Assembly: GCA_964474445.1 (NCBI GenBank)
Contig: CAYYSJ010000002.1
Span: forward strand, 53,610-117,609
Source: an uncultured Gammaproteobacteria bacterium
GTDB lineage: Bacteria > Patescibacteriota > Microgenomatia > Levybacterales > UBA12049
DNA length: 64,000 bases
Direction of reading: 5' to 3'
The notes under the pieces were generated by a model. That model had not been told where the DNA came from. It saw only the letters and a list, made by a program, of their open reading frames with translations, and ran no database searches. Shown here piece after piece: positions 4,772 through 46,018 of the stretch. Both the position numbers and the translations under genes were made by a program. The stretch's first letter is position 1. Every line of letters begins with the position of its first letter.

Positions 4772-5088
4772 TGCAGTGAACCTCCTTGAGATGCTACCTT
4801 TGCAGACGCAGTAGCAACATAAAGCGGTGGAAGTGGTGTAGGCGTTGGACTTGGTGTCAGGGAAATCGTTGGTATAGGAGAGATAGTAAAGGCAGGATTG
4901 ACGACAAGACGTTTAGCCATCTTTGCTAGCGTTGCAGTATCAAAGCTTGCTTCAATCGGAGCAATAGCTTCACTTGTTGTTGTGCTGATTGTTGAGGTCT
5001 GTGAGTTGTGAACAATAGTAAATGCGATCCACGCAAAGACAACCACACAGGCTGATGCTAATAAAAATAATACATCTCGTTGTTTCAT
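4768..5088 (-). CDS. Small membrane-anchored protein (possible pilus-assembly accessory)
   Basis: One N-terminal TM helix (LFLLASACVVVFAWIAFTIV) and a Thr/Pro-rich tail. Translationally coupled between the PilO-like and LPPTG genes. Confidence 0.4.
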   Translation of the reverse strand: MKQRDVLFLLASACVVVFAWIAFTIVHNSQTSTISTTTSEAIAPIEASFDTATLAKMAKRLVVNPAFTISPIPTISLTPSPTPTPLPPLYVATASAKVASQGGSLQ

Positions 5089-20193: not shown

Positions 20194-21174
20194 ATGGAAA
20201 TTTTAGATAAGATCTATGGAGCAATTGAGGTGACAGAACCGGTGATTGTTGATATTATTCATTCCAAACCTATGCAGCGATTGAAAAATATCAACCAGTA
20301 TGGTGTAACCGTATATCTTCAACCACTGTTTAGGACAACAACTCGGTACGACCATAGTATTGGAGCATGGTATCTTTCGAAAAAATATGGACGGTCAATG
20401 GAAGAACAAATCGCTTCACTTCTGCACGATATTCCCCATACAGCTTTTTCACACGTGGCAGACTTTGTTATGCAGGATGCGAATCACGAATACCATGATA
20501 AATTTCTTGAGAAAGTACTTATGCATTCTGAAATTCCTGAGATACTACAAAATCACAACATAAATGTTAAAGAAGTGCTCAAAAAAGAAAACTACCCACT
20601 TCTTGATAACAGATTACCTGATATTTCTGTTGATAGGTGGGATTATTTTTTGAGAGATGGTTATACATTTGGCATTATCCCAAAAGAAGTAGTCACGTTA
20701 CTTTTTCATAGCCTTAAAGAGAGAGGTAACGTGTTTTATTTTGAAGACACAAAAGTAGCAACACTTGCGGCAGTTCTTTTTCTCAATTGTTCTCGGCTTA
20801 TTTGGCTTGATCCGACTTCACATGGTGCTTTTTTCCTTCTCTCTGAGGCAATAAAGATTGCTATGAAAGAACGTTTACTTGCAGAAGAGGATTTATTTGG
20901 AGTTGATGATGAAATCATGAATAAACTAACGAGTTTTGGTAATCAAGAAATTGATACATTGCTTGGGCATCTTCACTCAGGTAAGCAATTTCACTATGCC
21001 TCAAAGAACGAGGCAGAATTTTATGGCCCCAACAAGCCTCGGTTTATTGATCCATTTGTAAAGGTGAGTGATGAACTAAAAAGAGTGAGTGATGTAGTGC
21101 CTGGTATGAATGAGTATTTCCAAGAGTTCGTCACGAATCATACCACTCTTGGTGTTAGCCAGAATAAGGAGTAG
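20194..21174 (+). CDS. HD-domain phosphohydrolase
   Basis: H..(28)..LLHDIPHTAFSH motif. 326 aa. YhaM/dGTPase-like HD superfamily. Confidence 0.65.
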   Translation: MEILDKIYGAIEVTEPVIVDIIHSKPMQRLKNINQYGVTVYLQPLFRTTTRYDHSIGAWYLSKKYGRSMEEQIASLLHDIPHTAFSHVADFVMQDANHEYHDKFLEKVLMHSEIPEILQNHNINVKEVLKKENYPLLDNRLPDISVDRWDYFLRDGYTFGIIPKEVVTLLFHSLKERGNVFYFEDTKVATLAAVLFLNCSRLIWLDPTSHGAFFLLSEAIKIAMKERLLAEEDLFGVDDEIMNKLTSFGNQEIDTLLGHLHSGKQFHYASKNEAEFYGPNKPRFIDPFVKVSDELKRVSDVVPGMNEYFQEFVTNHTTLGVSQNKE

Positions 21175-21183
21175 AATACATGT

Positions 21184-21651
21184 ATGAAACTGACTGTTGG
21201 GCAAATTGCTCCAGAATTTTCTCTCCCTGATCAAAATGGTGAAATGCATTCTTTATCAGATTATAGAGGAAAGTGGGTTCTTGTCTATTTCTATCCAAAA
21301 GACGACACACCTGGATGTACAACGGAAGCATGTAGCTTTCGTGATAACCTGCCGCACTTTACCAGTCAAAGAGCTATTGTTTTAGGCGTTAGTGCAGATA
21401 CGGTAAAAAGTCATAAAAAATTCACAGAAAAATATACACTTCCATTCACATTACTTGCAGATGAAGAGAAAAAAGTGGTCAAAGATTACGATGTCTGGCA
21501 TGTGAAGAAATTTATGGGGAAAGAATTTTTTGGAATACTAAGAACATCTTTTCTCATAAATCCAGAAGGGAAAATTATAAAAATTTATGAAGGGGTAAAA
21601 CCAGCAGAACATGCGCAGCAAGTCCTCCAAGATTTAACAGCCCTCACATAA
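21184..21651 (+). CDS. bcp: Thiol peroxidase Bcp (peroxiredoxin)
   Basis: YFYPKDDTPGCTTEACSFRD peroxidatic-Cys motif. 155 aa. Confidence 0.85.
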   Translation: MKLTVGQIAPEFSLPDQNGEMHSLSDYRGKWVLVYFYPKDDTPGCTTEACSFRDNLPHFTSQRAIVLGVSADTVKSHKKFTEKYTLPFTLLADEEKKVVKDYDVWHVKKFMGKEFFGILRTSFLINPEGKIIKIYEGVKPAEHAQQVLQDLTALT

Positions 21652-21660
21652 AAGATCTTC

Positions 21661-21691
21661 TTGACTCTTACGTTTCGTCATAGTTTATACT
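21661..21691 (+). promoter_or_regulatory. MerR-type promoter with a 19-nt spacer (TTGACT-19-TATACT) abutting the regulator start codon
   Basis: -35 at 21661..21666 and -10 at 21686..21691. Over-long 19-bp spacers are characteristic of MerR-family controlled promoters. This implies leaderless or second-ATG (21698) initiation. Confidence 0.45.
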
Positions 21692-22459
21692 ATGGCTATG
21701 AAATATACAGTACATGAATTGGCACAATTTTCTGGTATGAGTATTCGTACCCTTCATTATTATGACGAAATTGGACTTCTTAGACCAGAAAGTATAGGCA
21801 AAAATGGCTATCGATATTATGGCGAAAAGGAGATGGTACAACTCCAACAAATTCTTTTTTATAAAGAATTAGACTTTTCTTTGGATGAGATACAAAGATT
21901 GGTAAATGATCTGAATTTTGATATTGAACAAGCATTGCAAGATCATAAAAAGTTACTAATTGCAAAGAAAAAACGTATTGATAGTTTACTGATAACTATA
22001 GATAAAACAGTAAAACATTTGAAAGGAGGTGAAAGAATGACTAACGATGACTTATATCAAGGTTTTTCTGATGAAGAGCTGAATAAATTACAAGAAGAAG
22101 CTAAAGAACGTTGGGGTCATACTGATGCATATAAACAGTCTATAGAAAGAACCAAAGGTTGGACAAAGACTGATTATGATAGAACAGCAAAAAAGCAAAC
22201 TGATATTACAAAAGATCTTGCCGATCTTATGAAAAAAGGAGTTAGTCTGGAGAGCCCAGAGGTTCAGGCGGTTGTTGAAAGACATTATCAATACATTAAC
22301 CAGTTCTATGATGCATCAAATGCAATGTATCGGAATTTAGGAGAAATGTACGTTATAGATCTACGGTTTACTGCATACTATGATAAATTTGCACATGGTC
22401 TTGCAGTATTTATGAGAGACGCCATTGCTTATTACTGTAAGAATCATGGAGAAAAATAA
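21692..22459 (+). CDS. MerR-family transcriptional regulator with a TipAS/Mta-like C-terminal effector domain
   Basis: MKYTVHELAQFSGMSIRTLHYYDEIGLLRPESIGKNGYRYYGEKEMVQLQQILFYKELDFSLDEIQ is a MerR HTH plus coiled-coil. The C-terminal about 140 aa are TipAS-like. Confidence 0.8.
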   Translation: MAMKYTVHELAQFSGMSIRTLHYYDEIGLLRPESIGKNGYRYYGEKEMVQLQQILFYKELDFSLDEIQRLVNDLNFDIEQALQDHKKLLIAKKKRIDSLLITIDKTVKHLKGGERMTNDDLYQGFSDEELNKLQEEAKERWGHTDAYKQSIERTKGWTKTDYDRTAKKQTDITKDLADLMKKGVSLESPEVQAVVERHYQYINQFYDASNAMYRNLGEMYVIDLRFTAYYDKFAHGLAVFMRDAIAYYCKNHGEK

Positions 22460-22575
22460 AGAGGAGGCAGTGGTACCCTGCCTCTCTTATTATTAATAGA
22501 AAAGGAGTTAAAAAATTTGAATTTTATAACGTTATTTGCTAGTATCAACCTGGCTCTCGTAGAGAGAGTTTTTTT

Positions 22576-23382
22576 ATGAAAGCACTTGTTATCAATAATA
22601 CCTTTGAAGATAAAAAGAAAAGTCAGCTGCGAAATTCTATCTATCGAAAGCAAAAAATTCTGGAAGAATGGACAGAAAAAGTAGAAGAACTGCGTATGGA
22701 ACTTGAGCTCATTAAACATGAGTATCATGTGAGAGTTGGAGGGTTATTGTTAAAAGATAATCAACTTGATCTAGAAATACTACAGCTGAAAAATCTAAAA
22801 GAAAAAATGGCACAAGGTATGAGTTATGGTGAAGCTATAAAAGAAGATGAAGACGCATTCTATAATGAAATTCTCCGAATGCAAAAAGAACAAGAAACAA
22901 TTGAAGAGGAAAAAGAAATGCTGCAGAAAAGAGAAATAGTTGATAGTACTGTTGCAGAAGAAGTGAAATCGCTCTGGAAAAAACTTATCAGAAAATTTCA
23001 TCCAGATTTAGTTACAGATACTGATGAAAAACTTCGAAGAGAAGAGATTATGAAAAAGATAAATTTAGCATACACTCATTATGATATAGAAACTCTTAAG
23101 GCATTTGAAAACAATGTGGACATTGAAGATATAGCTCAATCAACTGTAGAAAGGCTCGAAGTTATTCTTATAGAAATTGAGAATAATGTAGAAGATTTGA
23201 GACTAGAATGGCTTGAGCTAAAAAATTCAATATGGTATTCATGGAAAATAAAAAAACAAAAAACCGCGAAACAAGAGGATGTTTTTGCTGATCTTGAAAA
23301 AACACTCTTGGATGATGTTGTAAAGAAGATAAAAATTCTTCAAGAGCTCCGTCGAGAAGTTATTCCAGATTACCCAATGTAA
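22576..23382 (+). CDS. Coiled-coil protein with an internal J-domain (HPD motif)
   Basis: LWKKLIRKFHPDLVTDTDEKLRREEIMKKINLAYTHY is J-domain helices II-III with HPD. The rest is a charged coiled-coil. Confidence 0.55.
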   Translation: MKALVINNTFEDKKKSQLRNSIYRKQKILEEWTEKVEELRMELELIKHEYHVRVGGLLLKDNQLDLEILQLKNLKEKMAQGMSYGEAIKEDEDAFYNEILRMQKEQETIEEEKEMLQKREIVDSTVAEEVKSLWKKLIRKFHPDLVTDTDEKLRREEIMKKINLAYTHYDIETLKAFENNVDIEDIAQSTVERLEVILIEIENNVEDLRLEWLELKNSIWYSWKIKKQKTAKQEDVFADLEKTLLDDVVKKIKILQELRREVIPDYPM

Positions 23383-23477
23383 ATAGTAAAAGAATGCCTG
23401 TGCCTTTATCGCTAATCACGCAATGGATTTAGAGGAATAGACAAAAAAACTACAATAAGTCTCATCTGTTTGTTATC

Positions 23478-23506
23478 AACTTTTCACCAGAATTTTACCT
23501 TGCAAG
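23478..23506 (+). promoter_or_regulatory. Sigma70-like promoter TTGCAA-17-TATAGT upstream of hsp20
   Basis: cTTGCAAgtacattattgTATAGTatgg immediately upstream of the Hsp20 start. Confidence 0.4.
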
Positions 23507-23513
23507 TACATTA

Positions 23514-23978
23514 TTGTATAGTATGGCAGTTATCAGATGGAATCCATGGAGCATAGAAAATTTCTTTGACGATGAGGGATTAGATATGCCAACAATACCA
23601 GGACTTTCTAGACTGGGACAAGGATTGAATTTGTATGAAACAAATGATGGAGTGTTTGCTGAGGTTGCATTGCCTGGTGTTTCTTCTGACAAGATTGATA
23701 TAACAGTTGAGGATGGATTAGTTCGAATAACAGGTGAACAAGAACAGAAAAGAGAAAAAAAAGAGAACACACGTTACTTTATGAATTCACTTTCTGCTTC
23801 ATATAATTATGCATTCCGATTGCCAAAAGATGTTGATCAAAATGCAGAGCCCGAGGCAACATGGGATAATGGCATTCTCCGGTTAATGTTCACCAAAGTG
23901 CAAAAAACACAGCCTAAAAGAATTTCAGTAAAAACGAAAGAAAAGGAAAATAAAAGTAAAGAGAAGGAGATAAAGTGA
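23514..23978 (+). CDS. Small heat shock protein (Hsp20/alpha-crystallin family)
   Basis: Alpha-crystallin domain: YETNDGVFAEVALPGVSSDKIDITVEDGLVRITGE...ASYNYAFRLP..ATWDNGILRLMF. Confidence 0.85.
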   Translation: MYSMAVIRWNPWSIENFFDDEGLDMPTIPGLSRLGQGLNLYETNDGVFAEVALPGVSSDKIDITVEDGLVRITGEQEQKREKKENTRYFMNSLSASYNYAFRLPKDVDQNAEPEATWDNGILRLMFTKVQKTQPKRISVKTKEKENKSKEKEIK

Positions 23979-24102
23979 ATGTCACAAGGACATCTAAATC
24001 CTATTCAAGTCCAAAAAAACATGTAAGGGAATAGATTATACCTGTTCCTTACTAACCTCATTCTTGACAAGATTTTTTTATCCATAGATACTACTAATAC
24101 CT

Positions 24103-24486
24103 ATGGATTTTAATTCTCAACAGATACAAGAGATAAATGATATACAGGCAATAGAAAAGCAAATTGCTTCAGATGAACAGCCTCATATATTGACCGAAAA
24201 CGTTGAAGTAGATAGATCAACGCTGAAAAATTTACTTGCATCATTTGGGATTATTGTCGTTGGAGGAGCAGCAATACTCCTTATTTTTATTTCGTTTCCC
24301 TCTGTAAAGAAAAAATTAGCTACAGTTCCTTCTCCTAAGACGGTTGATACCACAATGACAATTCCAATAGCATCTGATTCTGCTATTACGGTTCAAACAG
24401 AATATACAAATCCTTTTGACGCAAAAACCCAATATGAAAATCCCTTCTTAGCATCCAGAAATCCATTTGACAATATAACACAATGA
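24103..24486 (+). CDS. Hypothetical single-pass membrane protein
   Basis: One TM helix (FGIIVVGGAAILLIFISF). Overlaps the downstream gene start by 4 nt. Confidence 0.35.
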   Translation: MDFNSQQIQEINDIQAIEKQIASDEQPHILTENVEVDRSTLKNLLASFGIIVVGGAAILLIFISFPSVKKKLATVPSPKTVDTTMTIPIASDSAITVQTEYTNPFDAKTQYENPFLASRNPFDNITQ

Positions 24487-25622
24487 AACAAATAGGAAGT
24501 ATTCTCAGTATCACAATAGCTTTTTTTGCTCTGTCGTTATTTCAGGTTTTTGCACAGACTCCAACAACTGTGGAACAACAAGTATCGAGTCAATACAATA
24601 TAACATTTCCAATTGTGGAATTAGGGAATTGCACAGATCTTTCAAGTTGTAAAGCGTATTGTAATGATTCATCTCATCAACAAGCTTGCGTCGACTTTGC
24701 TAAGAAAAAAGGATTTTATAAGGAGACAACACTTGATACACAGAAAACAACAGTTTTACAATCTGCTAAAACAGATTTAGGATGCGATTCTGAAGAGACA
24801 TGTAGACAAGCATGTGAAAAAAAAGAAAATTTTGAGAAATGTGCTCAGTTTGCAAAAAGATTTAATTTAAAGGGAGGCCAGCCTAGCAACACGTCGGATA
24901 CTACTATTTTGCAAAGAGCAAAAACCATGTTGGGATGTACATCTGTCGACTCATGTAAATTGTTTTGTCAGCAAGGCGAAAATCAACAAAAATGTTCGAA
25001 TTTCGCAAAACAGGTAGGGTTAAGGGGTGGAACAACACAAGTTGGTCCTGGTGGATGTTCCTCTATTGACTCATGCAGAGCATACTGCATTGATCCAAGT
25101 CATTCTCAAATTTGTAGGCAATTTGCTCCTAAGAGTGGGAATCCCTCAGGTGAACTAAGACCACAGGTGAAAGGGCCTGGAGGTTGTATGAGCGAAGAGT
25201 CATGCAGAGCATATTGTGCTAATCACCCAGAAGCTTGTCATCACGGAGATAACAGTGTCCCAAGCAATATAATGTCACCATCTCCATACCATTCTCAGAT
25301 AGTACCATCCTCTTCAAATCAGTCAGATGATTGTAAAATGTATCCTGATCATTGTCATATACAAACACCTCAAGGTGCTATTACTAATAATCCACCTGTT
25401 CATGTCGATGACCCTGCATCAAATTGCGCAAGAAATAATTGTATTTGGACAGGAGGCACCTGCGTTTGTCCAAGTAAACAGCCAATAGAATCTGGTAGCC
25501 CAATTCCAGCACAACCTTCAACACCTGTCGTTTCACCTTTTCCTACAGTGCAACAAGTGCATGCAGCAGCAACCCACAAAAATATTATGCAGTGGTTATG
25601 GGATTATTTTTTCCTCAAATAA
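24483..25622 (+). CDS. Secreted cysteine-rich tandem-repeat protein (five C-x5-C-x3-C-x7-C modules)
   Basis: Signal peptide MKQIGSILSITIAFFALSLFQVFAQT. Five repeats of about 45 aa follow, e.g. GCDSEETCRQACEKKENFEKCAQFAKRF, GCTSVDSCKLFCQQGENQQKCSNFAKQV, GCSSIDSCRAYCIDPSHSQICRQFAPKS. There are extra Cys and His in the C-terminal 100 aa. Confidence 0.55.
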   Translation: MKQIGSILSITIAFFALSLFQVFAQTPTTVEQQVSSQYNITFPIVELGNCTDLSSCKAYCNDSSHQQACVDFAKKKGFYKETTLDTQKTTVLQSAKTDLGCDSEETCRQACEKKENFEKCAQFAKRFNLKGGQPSNTSDTTILQRAKTMLGCTSVDSCKLFCQQGENQQKCSNFAKQVGLRGGTTQVGPGGCSSIDSCRAYCIDPSHSQICRQFAPKSGNPSGELRPQVKGPGGCMSEESCRAYCANHPEACHHGDNSVPSNIMSPSPYHSQIVPSSSNQSDDCKMYPDHCHIQTPQGAITNNPPVHVDDPASNCARNNCIWTGGTCVCPSKQPIESGSPIPAQPSTPVVSPFPTVQQVHAAATHKNIMQWLWDYFFLK

Positions 25623-41785: not shown

Positions 41786-41822
41786 TTGACAATTGTTAGC
41801 AGTGTTGTTATATTAGTGCTAA
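41786..41822 (+). promoter_or_regulatory. hrcA operon promoter (TTGACA-17-TATATT) with a near-perfect CIRCE operator TTAGCAGTG-N9-TAGTGCTAA
   Basis: -35 at 41786..41791, -10 at 41809..41814. The CIRCE inverted repeat at 41796..41822 lies 20 nt upstream of the hrcA ATG. Confidence 0.85.
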
Positions 41823-41841: not shown

Positions 41842-42573
41842 ATGAATGACCTAACTCAAAGACAAATTCAAATCCTCAAAAGTCTTATTGAAGAATATAT
41901 CGAAACAGCTGATCCCGTTGGCTCCGAAACTCTTGAAAAAAAGCATAATTTATCAGCAAGTCCAGCAACTATTAGAAATGAAATGGTTCGATTGACAGAC
42001 CTTGGCTATCTCAAAAAACCTCATACATCTGCGGGTCGCATTCCAACTCCTCAAGGCATGAAATTTTATGTCAAACAACTTATGAAGGAAAAAGAATTAT
42101 CAGTTGCAGAAGAAGTTGCACTGAAAGAGAGAGTGTGGGATTATCGTGAACAAGAAGCAAGATTCTTAAAAGAAGCAGTAAAATCTTTAGCTGAAAAAAC
42201 ACGAGCACTGGCTGTTGCAACCACTCAAGGAGGAGATGTCTTTGCAGCAGGATATGCAAATATTTTGGACATGCCAGAATTTTATGATATCGATATAACC
42301 AAAAATTTACTAACAGCACTTGATGAATTTGAAACTTTCCGTGCAATCTGTTCTATTCCACAAGATGAAGAAGAAATTCATGTCTTGGTTGGTGAAGATT
42401 TAGCACCAAGACTGCAAGGCCCTTACGGATTTGTTTTTACCAGGTATCACACACCGTTAAATGAAACTGGTGAAATTGGCGTCTTAGGGCCAACACGGCT
42501 TGCTTACACGTCTGTTGTACCAGTTGTCAGATATTTTGGCGATTTAATTGAAGAAATTGCCAAGGGATGGTAA
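41842..42573 (+). CDS. hrcA: Heat-inducible transcription repressor HrcA (short, 243 aa)
   Basis: LTQRQIQILKSLIEEYIETADPVGSETL..SPATIRNEMVRLTDLGYLKKPHTSAGRIPT is the HrcA winged-helix N-terminus. Confidence 0.9.
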   Translation: MNDLTQRQIQILKSLIEEYIETADPVGSETLEKKHNLSASPATIRNEMVRLTDLGYLKKPHTSAGRIPTPQGMKFYVKQLMKEKELSVAEEVALKERVWDYREQEARFLKEAVKSLAEKTRALAVATTQGGDVFAAGYANILDMPEFYDIDITKNLLTALDEFETFRAICSIPQDEEEIHVLVGEDLAPRLQGPYGFVFTRYHTPLNETGEIGVLGPTRLAYTSVVPVVRYFGDLIEEIAKGW

Positions 42574-42602
42574 GGGCAGAGCTGCAGTGCAGTTGCAGAT
42601 AG

Positions 42603-43127
42603 TTGGTAATATATGATATGGATGAAAAAAGAAGAGACAAAGAAAATCACATAGAAGAAGAGAATATTGTTGAGAGCGAAGTAAAGCATTCTCAAGAAAT
42701 TAAAACAGAGAAAAAAGAAGAAAATGATCTTTTACAAAAAGTTCAGGAATTAGAGGATAAATACAGAAGAGCCTTGGCAGACTATCAAAATCTGCAGAGA
42801 AGAACTCAGGACGAGAAACGAGAATGGGCACGATTTTCAAATAAAGATTTGATCTTGAAACTCTTGCCGATTCTCGATACACTAATGCTTGCAGAGAAGC
42901 ATACAAAAGATCAGAATTTTGTCTTGACTGTACAGCAATTCTTGCAAGCATTAGAGCAAGAAGGAGTAAAAAGAATCAAGACCATTGGTGAGGAATTTAA
43001 TCCTCATACAATGGAAGCAGTCTCAACAGCAGAAGGTGATAGAGGCAAAGTTGTTGAGGAGCTGCGAGCAGGATACATGTTGTTTGACATGGTCCTGCGA
43101 CCAGCACAAGTAATAGTTGGGGAATAA
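42603..43127 (+). CDS. grpE: Nucleotide exchange factor GrpE
   Basis: [21 protein letters not shown]...LLPILDTL..A.. GrpE signature. 174 aa. Confidence 0.9.
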
Positions 43128-43132
43128 ACATT

Positions 43133-45040
43133 ATGGCACAAAGTAAAATTATTGGTATTGATTTAGGAACAACAAATTCGTGTGTTGCAGTCATGGAAGG
43201 TGGGCAACCAAAAGTTATCCACTCTGCAGAAGGACGCAATGTCATCCCATCTGTTGTAGATCCAAAAACACACGTTGTTGGAGATGTGGCAAAGCGTCAA
43301 TTAGTTCTTAAGCCAAGAGAAACCATCTTCTCAGTCAAGCGCATCATGGGTCGAAAATATCATGATGAATCTGTTCAATATGATATTAAATGGCTTCCAT
43401 ATACCGTCAAAGCGGGGCGAGACGATATGGCAGATGTTGAAGTAGGTGGAAAAATGTATACTCCTCAGGAAATTTCAGCAATGGTGCTGCAAAAAATTAA
43501 AACTGACGCAGAGGCATATCTTGGAGATAAAGTAACCCAAGCTGTTATTACCGTTCCAGCATATTTTGATGATGCACAAAGGCAAGCAACTAAGCAAGCT
43601 GGGGAAATTGCAGGTTTGGAAGTTTTGAGAATTATCAACGAGCCAACTGCAGCAGCACTTGCTTACGGCTTGGATAAGAAGAATGCACATACCATCGCTG
43701 TCTATGATTTGGGAGGCGGAACATTTGATATTTCAATTCTCGAGCTTGGTGAAGGTGTTTATGAAGTGAAATCAACCAATGGTGATACTCACCTTGGTGG
43801 AGATGATTTTGACCAGAAGATTGTTGATTATTTAGCAGATGAATTTAAAAAGGAAAATAATATAGATCTTCGAAAAGATCCGCAAGCATTGCAAAGACTT
43901 CGAGAGTCAGCAGAAAAAGCAAAGATTGAATTGTCATCCTCTCAGGAAGCACAAATTAACCAGCCATTTATTACCGTTGGACCAAATGGGCCACTTCATT
44001 TAACAATGACCCTTACCCGAGCAAAGCTTGAGGCAATTGTTGATGATCTTATTCAAAAATCACTTGAGCCAGTAAAGAAAGCGCTTTCTGATGCAAAAAA
44101 GAGTATCTCTGATATTGATGAGGTTGTGCTGGTTGGTGGTATGACTAGAATGCCAAAAGTGATAGAGACAGTGACCAAATTCTTTGGAAAAGAGCCAAAT
44201 AAGTCAGTTAATCCAGATGAAGTAGTTGCAATTGGAGCAGCAGTACAGGGTGGTGTGTTGGCTGGAGAAGTTACAGATGTCCTCCTTTTGGATGTAACAC
44301 CTTTAACGCTTGGTCTTGAGACTTTAGGCAGTGTCAGTACACCACTTATTCAACGAAACACAACCATTCCAACCAGTAAATCTCAAGTTTTTTCAACAGC
44401 AGCAGACAATCAAACGCAAGTTGAAATCAATGTTCTGCAAGGAGAACGTCCAATGGCAGCAGACAATAAATCACTTGGAAGGTTTATTCTTGATGGTATT
44501 CCACCAGCTCCTAGAGGTGTTCCACAAGTGGAAGTGACCTTTGATATTGATGCGTCAGGAATTTTGTCTGTGAAGGCTAAAGATAAAGCATCTGGCAAAG
44601 AGCAGTCTATTAAGATTACTGGCTCAACAGGCCTTTCTAAAGATGAAGTCGAGAAAATGACCAAAGAAGCGGAGCTTCATGCAAAGGAAGATGAAGAGAA
44701 GAAGGCAAAGATAGAAGCACGAAATCATGCAGACTCTCTTATCTTTACTGCTGAAAAAGCACTGAAAGACGGTGGAGATAAAGTTCCTGCTGATGTAAAG
44801 AGTGAAGTAGAAGGTAAGATCAAAGATTTGAAAGACATTTTAGATACTGGGAGTAAAGAAGATTTGGAAGCAAAGACAAAAGATTTGTCTGAGACCCTCT
44901 CAAAGATTGGACAAGCAGCATACCAACAAGGTCAGCAAGCAACGACAGAACCTGAAGTTGAAGCAAAAGAAGAAGATGGTTCGACAGGCTCATCAAAAAG
45001 TGGTAAGGATGAGGCACAAGAAGGAGAAGTGATTAGTTAA
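43133..45040 (+). CDS. dnaK: Chaperone DnaK (Hsp70)
   Basis: [41 protein letters not shown]. 635 aa. Confidence 0.98.
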
Positions 45041-45076
45041 GATTGCGATTTAAGAATTAAGATAGAGGAATAATTG

Positions 45077-45097
45077 TGCGCGCGTGAGCGCATTTTT
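45077..45097 (+). terminator. Hairpin plus T-run between dnaK and dnaJ (partial terminator/attenuator), followed by a TATAAT box
   Basis: TGCGC-gcgtga-GCGCA followed by TTTTT, then agTATAATtagc at 45099..45106. Confidence 0.45.
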
Positions 45098-45142
45098 AGT
45101 ATAATTAGCACGTACTACAAAGGATAAGAAAGGACTAAACCT

Positions 45143-46018
45143 ATGCCGACAGCAAAAGATTATTATGAAATTATGGGAGTCTCAAAATCTGCGACAGATC
45201 AAGAGATAAAATCCGCGTATCGAAAACTTGCTTTGCAATATCATCCTGACCGCAACAAAACAAAAGAAGCAGAGGAGAAATTTAAGGAAGTTACAAAAGC
45301 ATACGAAGTATTATCGGATTCTCAAAAAAGACAAACTTACGACCAATTTGGTGCAGCAGCTTTTGAGCAAGGTGGCATGGGTGGAGGCAATCCTTTTGCT
45401 GGAGGGTTTGGCGGGCAGCAAGGACCATTTACATATACATACACAACTAATGGAGGTGGGTTTGATTTCGGTGGATTCAATGATCCTTTTGACATCTTTG
45501 AACAATTTTTCGGAGGGGCATCCCCTTTTGGTAGACAACAACGCCGTCCAATATACTCTGTTACGATAGACTTTATGGAATCTGTTAAAGGAATAACGAA
45601 AAAGGTAACGATTAATGGCAAGCAGCAATCAATTAAAATCCCAGCAGGTGTTGATAGCGGATCTCGCATTCGTTTTCAGGATTATGATGTCGTTATAGAA
45701 GTCCTCCAGCATAATCGGTATAAAAGAGAAGGATATGACATTGTGACAGATGAAGAAATCTCTTTTCCACAGGCGGCTTTGGGAACAGAGTATACAGTAG
45801 AGACTATTGATGAAAAGGTGACTGTTCGAATCCCTGCCGGTACACAACCCAATGCTCTTATCAGACTTCGTGGCAAAGGGGTACCTCATCTCCAAGGATC
45901 TGGAAGAGGGGATCACTATATGCATGTGAAAGTCGTTGTACCTAAAAATTTAACTTCTCGCCAGAAAGAGCTTCTCAAAGAGTTTGATGGGGAAAAAAGC
46001 AAAAAAGGTTGGTTTTAA
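45143..46018 (+). CDS. dnaJ: DnaJ-family co-chaperone lacking the CxxCxGxG zinc-finger domain (CbpA/type II-like)
   Basis: J-domain DYYEIMGVSKSATDQEIKSAYRKLALQYHPDRNK and a G/F-rich linker GGMGGGNPFAGGFGG. The C-terminal beta-sandwich domains are present, but no Cys-rich repeats. Confidence 0.85.
   Translation: MPTAKDYYEIMGVSKSATDQEIKSAYRKLALQYHPDRNKTKEAEEKFKEVTKAYEVLSDSQKRQTYDQFGAAAFEQGGMGGGNPFAGGFGGQQGPFTYTYTTNGGGFDFGGFNDPFDIFEQFFGGASPFGRQQRRPIYSVTIDFMESVKGITKKVTINGKQQSIKIPAGVDSGSRIRFQDYDVVIEVLQHNRYKREGYDIVTDEEISFPQAALGTEYTVETIDEKVTVRIPAGTQPNALIRLRGKGVPHLQGSGRGDHYMHVKVVVPKNLTSRQKELLKEFDGEKSKKGWF

Follow-up and report, generated by a model that had tools for sequence, protein, structure and literature searches.

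The TipA class of MerR-family regulators has been described as "minimal autoregulated multidrug resistance systems" (PMC7762955), and in Streptomyces lividans the predominant product is the antibiotic-binding form TipAS, whose translation begins at an alternative start codon (PMC7762955). Among bacterial J-domain proteins, DjlA belongs to class C and is anchored in the membrane (PMC10410713). Here, we compare with these systems the interval from 21,652 to 23,978 of a 64-kb window (the whole stretch of 64,000 nucleotides that was analyzed; G+C content, 37.7%). Three + strand open reading frames (ORFs) lie there 3' of a Bcp/AhpC-TSA peroxiredoxin gene (21184-21651), encoding a TipA-like MerR regulator, a J-domain protein (here the J protein, encoded by the J gene), and a small heat shock protein (sHSP; gene hsp20). 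In a first-pass annotation made from the sequence alone, the three genes had been read as one chaperone module that answers to drugs or stress under the control of the MerR regulator, which, if true, would be a new wiring of chaperones to a drug sensor; the evidence presented below says no, while the domain calls, the MerR-type promoter, and the HPD motif of that annotation stand. We favor, with a probability of about two in three, the reading that the interval holds three independently transcribed genes (an autoregulated TipA/Mta-type sensor, a class C J protein, and an sHSP) in a variable region of a Patescibacteria genome that carries stress and proteostasis genes. All three components are of known kinds, and the J family and the leader element of its gene alone merit follow-up. 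The features are collected in Table 1, and the related loci, referred to by their handles, in Table 2.

Table 1. Features of the interval, in window positions
Feature	Position	Strand	Basis or remark
Promoter of TipA/Mta class, presumed autoregulatory: -35 TTGACT (21661-66), 19-nt spacer, -10 TATACT (21686-91)	21661..21691	+	sequence
Imperfect dyad ACTcTtACGtttCGTcAtAGT, presumed operator of the regulator	21664..21684	.	sole match in the window
TipA-class MerR regulator, 253 amino acids (aa)	21698..22459	+	public gene calls start at 21692 (255 aa)
Internal Shine-Dalgarno sequence AGGAGGTG (22024-22031) and in-frame ATG 22037 (Met114), 5 nt apart	22024..22039	+	
Putative TipAS-like short product, 140 aa	22037..22459	+	predicted from internal start
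GC-rich terminator-like hairpin after regulator gene	22463..22485	+	terminator scan
J gene's own promoter: TTGAAT (22517-22), 17 nt, TAGTAT (22540-45)	22517..22545	+	conserved position and spacing
5' hairpin (22552-22570) and T7 run up to J start codon	22552..22575	+	intrinsic-terminator shape
Class C (type III) J-domain protein, 268 aa	22576..23382	+	sub-threshold Pfam DnaJ match, family alignment, AlphaFold model
Helical hairpin of J protein, residues 7-121			
J segment, residues ~124-179	22945..23112		
C-terminal helical domain of J protein, residues 191-262			
Block upstream of hsp20, TTGTTAwC..CTTTTCAC..TTTAC	23470..23499	+	four aligned upstream regions (window, L001, L036, L040)
Hsp20/alpha-crystallin sHSP, 151 aa	23523..23978	+	Pfam HSP20 (PF00011) E 4.9e-14, above gathering score

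The ORF from 21692 to 22459 gave Pfam matches to MerR_1 (E 2.4e-16), MerR (1.2e-13), MerR-DNA-bind (1.3e-07), and TipAS (PF07739; 6.5e-39, spanning profile positions 2-117 of 117), which bears out the call of a MerR regulator with a TipAS-like domain. The three-part architecture of S. lividans TipAL/TipAS, Bacillus subtilis Mta, Caulobacter crescentus SkgA, and Listeria Lmo0526 (PDB 3QAO) is present at full length. In matches to PDB sequences, 3QAO scored 5.8e-49, SkgA (7CLA) 1.6e-43, B. subtilis MtaN, aligned over residues 1-105, 3.4e-29, and Streptomyces TipAS 5e-24 (2MBZ; 1NY9 likewise ~5e-24). More than 5000 homologues were found at E<=1e-40, and a metagenome scan with the regulator returned 3 distant loci only. 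The HspR/HAIR (HspR-associated inverted repeat) system was considered as well, HspR likewise being a MerR-family protein encoded beside chaperone genes, and was rejected: the regulator scored 27.5 bits against the cut-off of 105 for NF047375, and its TipAS domain lies outside the 92-position HspR model. In an alignment to 2MBZ, the two cysteines of the TipA HYDCGYEMHTCLGEMYV segment, of which one presumably reacts with thiopeptides, correspond to Ala and Asn. The thiostrepton-reactive cysteine, which is specific to TipA and not a feature of Mta or SkgA, is thus not kept (Asn stands there); with both cysteines replaced, covalent thiopeptide capture is unlikely.

The MerR-type promoter with its 19-nt spacer, as read in the first pass, is conserved in six other loci. 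The layout TTGACT, 19 nt, -10 box, 6 nt, ATG is shared by the window and L001, L006, L035, L040, L042, and L043, whose regulator orthologues have 54-66% protein identity. A palindromic operator had been proposed as something to seek in the spacer, and an imperfect, mta-like dyad is indeed found there. In all seven loci it takes the form ACTnTnACG-N3-yGTnATrGT; it is near-perfect in L006 (ACTCTCACGCTGCGTGATAGT), and the dyad of L032 reads TAACGTTACGTTA. A probe of the mta promoter in the literature, TTGACCCTAACGTTGCGTGATTGTTT (PMC7762955), is very similar to it, and its ACG..CGT core is the same as in the published tipA, mta, and skgA probes (PMC7762955). With up to three mismatches allowed, the operator pattern matched the 64-kb window just once, at this site, while a looser core pattern gave one unrelated, intragenic match. 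As in the minimal autoregulated multidrug resistance systems, the promoter stands before the regulator's own gene. By analogy, a dimeric regulator would bind the dyad in the spacer, and the ligand-bound regulator would realign the -35 and -10 boxes, raising its own synthesis.

The promoter had also been described as abutting the start codon, and this is true of the annotated ATG at 21692, which adjoins the -10 box; the real start is probably the ATG 6 nt further on. Because the -10 box is followed in all seven loci by an ATG at a distance of exactly 6 nt, the start at 21698 (MKYTV...) is likely, the annotated protein probably being two codons too long and its mRNA leaderless. From this ATG the N-terminus resembles that of Mta (MKYQV), and the long form would be translated directly at the 5' end. 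A Shine-Dalgarno-like motif is present in 4 of 56 window genes, and many genes have a TATAAT-type -10 box, often TG-preceded, ~6 nt before the ATG. Leaderless mRNAs thus appear to be common in the source genome, and since this layout recurs in the window, a promoter adjoining the start codon is not special to the MerR gene. In comparison with described TipA-class systems, the locus differs in that the long form appears leaderless and the host is a Patescibacteria genome.

A candidate for the second tipA product is also present. The sequence AGGAGGTG is found at a single site of the 64-kb window, within the regulator gene where the helix-turn-helix domain gives way to the TipAS domain, and the arrangement (A)AGG(A/G)GGTG-N5-ATG/GTG is retained in 7 of 7 loci (for example, L001 4441-4455 and L006 1896-1910). 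This includes L043, where Met is changed to Val at the internal start but the codon is GTG, so that start capability is kept. GGAGGT accounts for only 6 of the 64 Gly-Gly dicodons in window genes, so the conservation of the site is not explained by codon preference. The internal start aligns within a few residues of the natural TipAS N-terminus, at a position matching that from which S. lividans tipA makes its shorter in-frame product, and probably gives a TipAL/TipAS-like pair, in which the short ligand-binding domain alone would sequester the compound. We therefore regard the regulator locus as a clean, phylogenetically footprinted TipA/Mta-type unit in Patescibacteria, presumably autoregulated, with a corrected start, a long form that appears to lack a leader, and probably a short form like TipAS.

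Downstream of the regulator, two hairpins (22463-85 and 22552-70) lie between its gene and the J coding sequence. The first, GGCAGYGGTAYCCTGYC, is kept in L001 (~4876-4897), L040, and L043, with a T-run behind it in the window and L001 only. As a separate observation, its stem and loop (GGCAGYGGTAYCCTGYC) are retained in these four loci within otherwise diverged intergenic DNA, and the element could be more than a terminator. Between the two hairpins stands the J gene's own promoter, which matches the consensus at 8 of 12 positions, under the threshold of the promoter scanner, and is conserved in L001, L035, L036, L039, L040, L042, and L043.

The second hairpin begins 6-10 nt after the J gene's -10 box and is followed by the T7 run and then directly by the ATG. 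It is a second barrier between the regulator promoter and the J coding sequence. The same layout, a hairpin and a run of T5-7 at the J start codon, is found in 13 J loci (window, L001, L002, L006, L014, L015, L035, L036, L038, L039, L040, L042, and L043). The stems differ and covary among loci, in at least seven sequences: CTCTC/GAGAG, CCCTC/GAGGG, TCCCG/CGGGA, TCCG/CGGA, CCTTT/AAAGG, GCCC/GGGC, and AGATGGTT/AACCATCT. By a simple criterion, the J gene is the only one of 55 window genes with this hairpin-T-run shape, which 2 of 199 other ORFs of the related loci also have. A covariance model built from three J leaders found five more at marginal E values (0.008-1.7), mixed with metK terminators; RNAalifold gave no consensus on the MAFFT-aligned J leaders, in which stem and loop lengths differ. 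The Rfam search returned no match at E<=1 for the hairpin and nothing in 21100-24300, and the hairpin is predicted to be still folded at 45°C (-6.8 kcal/mol); an RNA thermometer or a known cis-regulatory RNA was rejected for these reasons. Candidate roles are (i) an insulator against read-through, (ii) an attenuator, (iii) a 5' stabilizer, or (iv) sequestration of the purine-rich 3' arm. In the favored reading, the J gene has its own promoter and is insulated or attenuated by this terminator-shaped hairpin; in any case, a conserved terminator-like 5' element on the J gene is brought to light. Separately, the public call of the J gene in L043 starts at a GTG (1191) upstream of its own 5' hairpin and is likely misannotated, as compared with a start at 1227.

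The identification of the third gene as hsp20 is confirmed by the Pfam HSP20 match. The NCBIfam models Hsp14, Hsp20, and Hsp18 match its product below their cut-offs, and the protein is therefore no orthologue of any named sHSP. Relatives share the N-terminus MAVIRWNPW, and an I-S-V motif lies near the C-terminus. The alpha-crystallin domain, the aromatic-rich N-terminal arm, and the C-terminal I-x-V are thus shared with the IbpA-B, Hsp18, and Hsp20 proteins, and nothing notable differs. The promoter of its own that had been assigned to hsp20 (TTTACC, 17 nt, TATAGT) does not hold up: a 9/12 match is at chance level (14 found against 12 expected in the region), the element is not conserved in relatives, and because its -10 box touches the ATG, the transcript would be without the conserved start codon. 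The four aligned upstream regions yielded no convincing promoter, but 25-55 nt upstream of hsp20 they share the TTGTTAwC..CTTTTCAC..TTTAC block, which bears no relation to the MerR operator or the J promoter. It does not fit the sigma-70 consensus and may serve as an operator or be recognized by a different sigma factor. The gene would thus be an ordinary sHSP gene using its own upstream signals.

Loci centered on J homologues were collected from species-representative genomes and through exact-protein look-ups (Table 2). The J gene is fixed in a MetK/HD...FKBP/MsrB backbone, in which MerR, hsp20, NUDIX, a family that we call X, and other neighbors vary. The triad was seen only at J identities of 76% and above, and even at these it is interrupted by inserted genes (L001 and L040) or lacks the regulator (L036). 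In 19 more distant genomes (30-58% J identity), MerR and HSP20 genes are absent from the two-gene neighborhood of J. Across 72 J-neighboring genes from 21 genomes scanned with Pfam, MerR and HSP20 were found at most once each, both in L001, and the commonest neighbor was a HAD hydrolase (4 of 72 genes). Shared synteny of the three genes, proposed as a check in the first pass, is therefore limited and broken, and the outcome named there as speaking against a module, a lack of linkage between them in relatives, is largely what was found. Since the association is confined to a narrow lineage and eroded within it, it points to shared ancestry in a variable region and not to a selected operon. The X family itself (209-218 aa, no Pfam or PADLOC match) lies directly upstream of J in L035 (3287-3931), L036 (3312-3941), and L002 (4287-4940) and is absent from the window; in L035, X starts 18 nt after the MerR gene, with no terminator between the two.

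Table 2. Gene order around the J gene in the window and related loci
Locus	J identity	Gene order
Window	reference	Bcp-MerR-J-Hsp20
L036	80%	X-J-Hsp20-DUF2795, no MerR
L043	78%	MerR-J, then contig end
L001	76%	Bcp-MerR-J-(Bcp-like gene, opposite strand)-Hsp20
L040	76%	MerR-J-170 aa gene-NUDIX-Hsp20
L035	72%	MerR-X-J-NUDIX, no Hsp20
L038	70%	MetK-J-PurL
L002	68%	X-J-FKBP
L039	58%	Bcp-EamA-193 aa gene-J
L042	58%	MerR-MFS-...-J
L006	56%	MerR-HAD-...-J

The J protein was described in the first pass as a coiled-coil protein with a J-domain as its sole recognizable feature, and both the Pfam result and a helical AlphaFold model agree with this. Pfam DnaJ matched residues 127-167 over profile positions 14-51 of 63 (E 3e-4; 21.2 bits against a gathering score of 27.8), and the J segment is the sole recognizable feature, with no DnaJ_C or zinc-finger match in Pfam. 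In profile searches of PDB sequences with the J family, J domains alone scored below E 0.05 (Sec63, DnaJ, and others), and hhalign of the family against the window's own DnaJ gave E 1.2e-4 with a probability of 56%. The AlphaFold model is all-helical, with a mean predicted local distance difference test score of 81.5, and consists of a hairpin of two helices (7-79, 73 residues, and 84-121, 38 residues), the J helices (124-141, 149-167, and 171-179), and three C-terminal helices. Among 32 homologues, reaching down to 35% identity, F141, H142, D144, and L145 are invariant and P143 is kept in at least 90%. The HPD motif, a lack of whose conservation had been named beforehand as a refuting outcome, is thus retained in every homologue save one with HAD. 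Helix II has K135 in at least 90% and a basic majority residue at 136, 139, and 140, and N163, A165, and Y166 are conserved in helix III. The HPD, K135, and N163/A165/Y166 being conserved across the 32 members, the J segment is evidently under selection. Outside of it, the N-terminal motif EYxVRIGxLLLKDNQLDLEI is conserved (Y50, G55, D61, and N62 invariant), as are W220, W223, F237, E241, and K251, all invariant, in the C-terminal region. The hairpin and C-terminal domain had no Pfam, PDB-sequence, or fold match, the fold searches giving generic helical matches.

A search of 5.8 billion proteins yielded 114 full-length J homologues of ~260-285 aa; those with any annotation are called hypothetical or "J domain-containing protein" and come from Patescibacteria. 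Genomes with an informative name are mostly Patescibacteria, many titles being uninformative or doubtful. Searched against 1.84 billion cluster representatives, the family profile matched 84 clusters when the cut-off was E<=1e-30 and 588 when it was E<=1e-10. We found no paper in our literature search that links J-domain proteins to Patescibacteria. On this sequence evidence, the J protein is assigned to class C as a member of an undescribed, lineage-wide Patescibacteria subfamily. Class A/B identity (DnaJ or CbpA) was rejected, as no DnaJ_C or zinc-finger match was found in the J protein and the canonical DnaJ (DnaJ and DnaJ_C) is encoded elsewhere in the window (45143-46018); a phage or defense role was dropped as well, PHROGs and PADLOC giving no match for the J protein. 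As with class C proteins such as DjlA, the J domain with its HPD is the only shared module, and the glycine/phenylalanine-rich region, zinc finger, and DnaJ_C are lacking. In contrast to DjlA, the J domain is internal and has no recognizable helix I, it is flanked by the helical hairpin and a Trp-containing C-terminal helical domain, and no TerB domain was found by Pfam. The membrane anchor of DjlA has a parallel in the N-terminal transmembrane extensions of the distant members P0128, P0129, P0138, P0196, P0204, and P0214, some distant members having multi-pass domains, and this hints at a membrane-associated ancestral role of the family. The N-terminal extensions of the longer homologues gave no Pfam domain other than one weak FtsK_gamma match, one second J domain, and a PQQ propeller, the last, a C-terminal PQQ beta-propeller, being recorded in one distant member; the genes surrounding P0129 and P0111 offered no clue. 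The distant members with unusual domains or membrane segments that were noted are P0128, P0129, P0138, P0196, P0204, P0214, P0218, and P0261. The window also encodes GrpE and DnaK (43133-45040; HSP70 1.5e-257), and the J protein would stimulate this DnaK through its HPD and basic helix II, while the helical hairpin and C-terminal domain would supply the client or the location. The family (~588 clusters at 50% identity) is a candidate means for reduced-genome bacteria to specialize a single DnaK.

It is improbable, in our judgment, that the TipA-like regulator controls J and hsp20 as a ligand- or stress-inducible module, whether via read-through or via undetected operators, even though the MerR-J-Hsp20 order on one strand with short gaps suggests it, the order recurs with insertions in L001 and L040 and as MerR-J in L043, and the T-tract after the MerR hairpin is interrupted. 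Against this control stand the finding of one operator in 64 kb, which lies in the promoter of the regulator itself (the J and hsp20 upstream regions showed none with up to three mismatches in the window search), the two terminator-shaped hairpins before the J coding sequence, the conservation of the J promoter also in loci that lack MerR (L036, L039, and L002), the different conserved block upstream of hsp20, and the absence of the triad from the 19 more distant genomes. In L042, moreover, the regulator gene is followed by a gene for an MFS transporter, which is a classical Mta-type target. The separate upstream elements and the narrow synteny thus tell against the MerR-driven module of the first pass, and regulator control of J or hsp20 as an operon or regulon is not supported by the sequence. 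As for the HrcA regulon, the window holds an hrcA-grpE-dnaK-dnaJ operon (41842-46018) and, elsewhere, a groEL gene, and the only inverted repeat resembling CIRCE (controlling inverted repeat of chaperone expression) found in the window, TAGCAGTGTTGTTATATTAGTGCTA at 41797-41821, lies just upstream of hrcA, with none near J or hsp20. Several points nevertheless weigh against three independent genes. The terminator scan found none in the 140-nt gap between J and hsp20, so their co-transcription is possible, and the hairpin after the regulator is without a clean T-run in L040 and L043, where read-through is possible. The operator search covered 64 kb of the genome, and the transcripts and proteins of the favored reading are predictions. 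MerR is adjacent to or one gene upstream of J in five lineages (window, L001, L040, L043, and L035; J identity at least 72%) and is no more than 4 kb away from J in L006 and L042, which are more distant, while hsp20 is 0-2 genes downstream of J in four (window, L001, L036, and L040), so that some functional linkage among the genes is possible.

A looser arrangement leaves the regulator out and makes J and Hsp20 a functional pair, in which J would recruit DnaK to sHSP-bound aggregates and, in this lineage, the J promoter would drive both genes as one transcript. It is established that substrates in sHSP assemblies are taken over by DnaK and J-domain proteins, and the pairing is consistent with this, as it is with the terminator-free gap and with the genes adjoining in the window and in L036/L037 and lying close in L001 and L040. 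We consider it unlikely, as the adjacency is confined to relatives of at least 76% identity, for which shared ancestry suffices; an opposite-strand gene separates the two in L001 and two genes in L040; the pair is absent from L035, L038, L002, L039, L042, and the 19 more distant genomes; and hsp20 has its own conserved upstream block. Less credible still is that the 268-aa protein is merely a coiled-coil structural protein and its J-like segment a degenerate, non-functional relic. The sub-threshold and partial DnaJ match, the unmatched helix I, the hhalign probability of only 56%, and the generic fold matches would all fit such a relic, but not the (near-)invariance of F-H-P-D-L down to 35% identity, the retained basic helix II and N163/A165/Y166, or the restriction of significant PDB sequence matches to J domains. 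In addition, the J segments of other family members score 21-29 bits with Pfam DnaJ, P0204 (29.0) exceeding the threshold and P0196 (27.8) equaling it. In a bolder reading, the new class C family across Patescibacteria, with its membrane-anchored relatives, might use its hairpin to direct DnaK to a lineage-specific client or site, have its synthesis gated by the hairpin at the start codon (as attenuator or insulator), and cooperate with the adjacent Hsp20; taken as a whole, we consider this combination rather unlikely.

The closest relatives of the window are metagenome-assembled genomes of Patescibacteria, labeled Levyibacteriota, Microgenomates, Paceibacterota, and others, and Bcp, FKBP, and MsrB genes are found near the three genes. 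The title "uncultured Gammaproteobacteria bacterium" is carried by the Patescibacteria-like contigs L001, L005, L008, L010, L012, L014, L016, L017, and L020, while L023 is titled Woesearchaeota and L009 Limnocylindrales; these odd record titles probably reflect placeholder or misbinned taxonomy. Downstream of hsp20, a two-gene unit at 24103-25622 of the window comprises orf127 and the gene for a cysteine-rich protein of 379 aa, whose N-terminus resembles a signal peptide and in which C..C motifs recur; Pfam gave no match for the unit. Similar sequences were detected by tblastn at the equivalent position in L004 and L005, and L035 has similar-sized genes there, of 122 and 387 aa.

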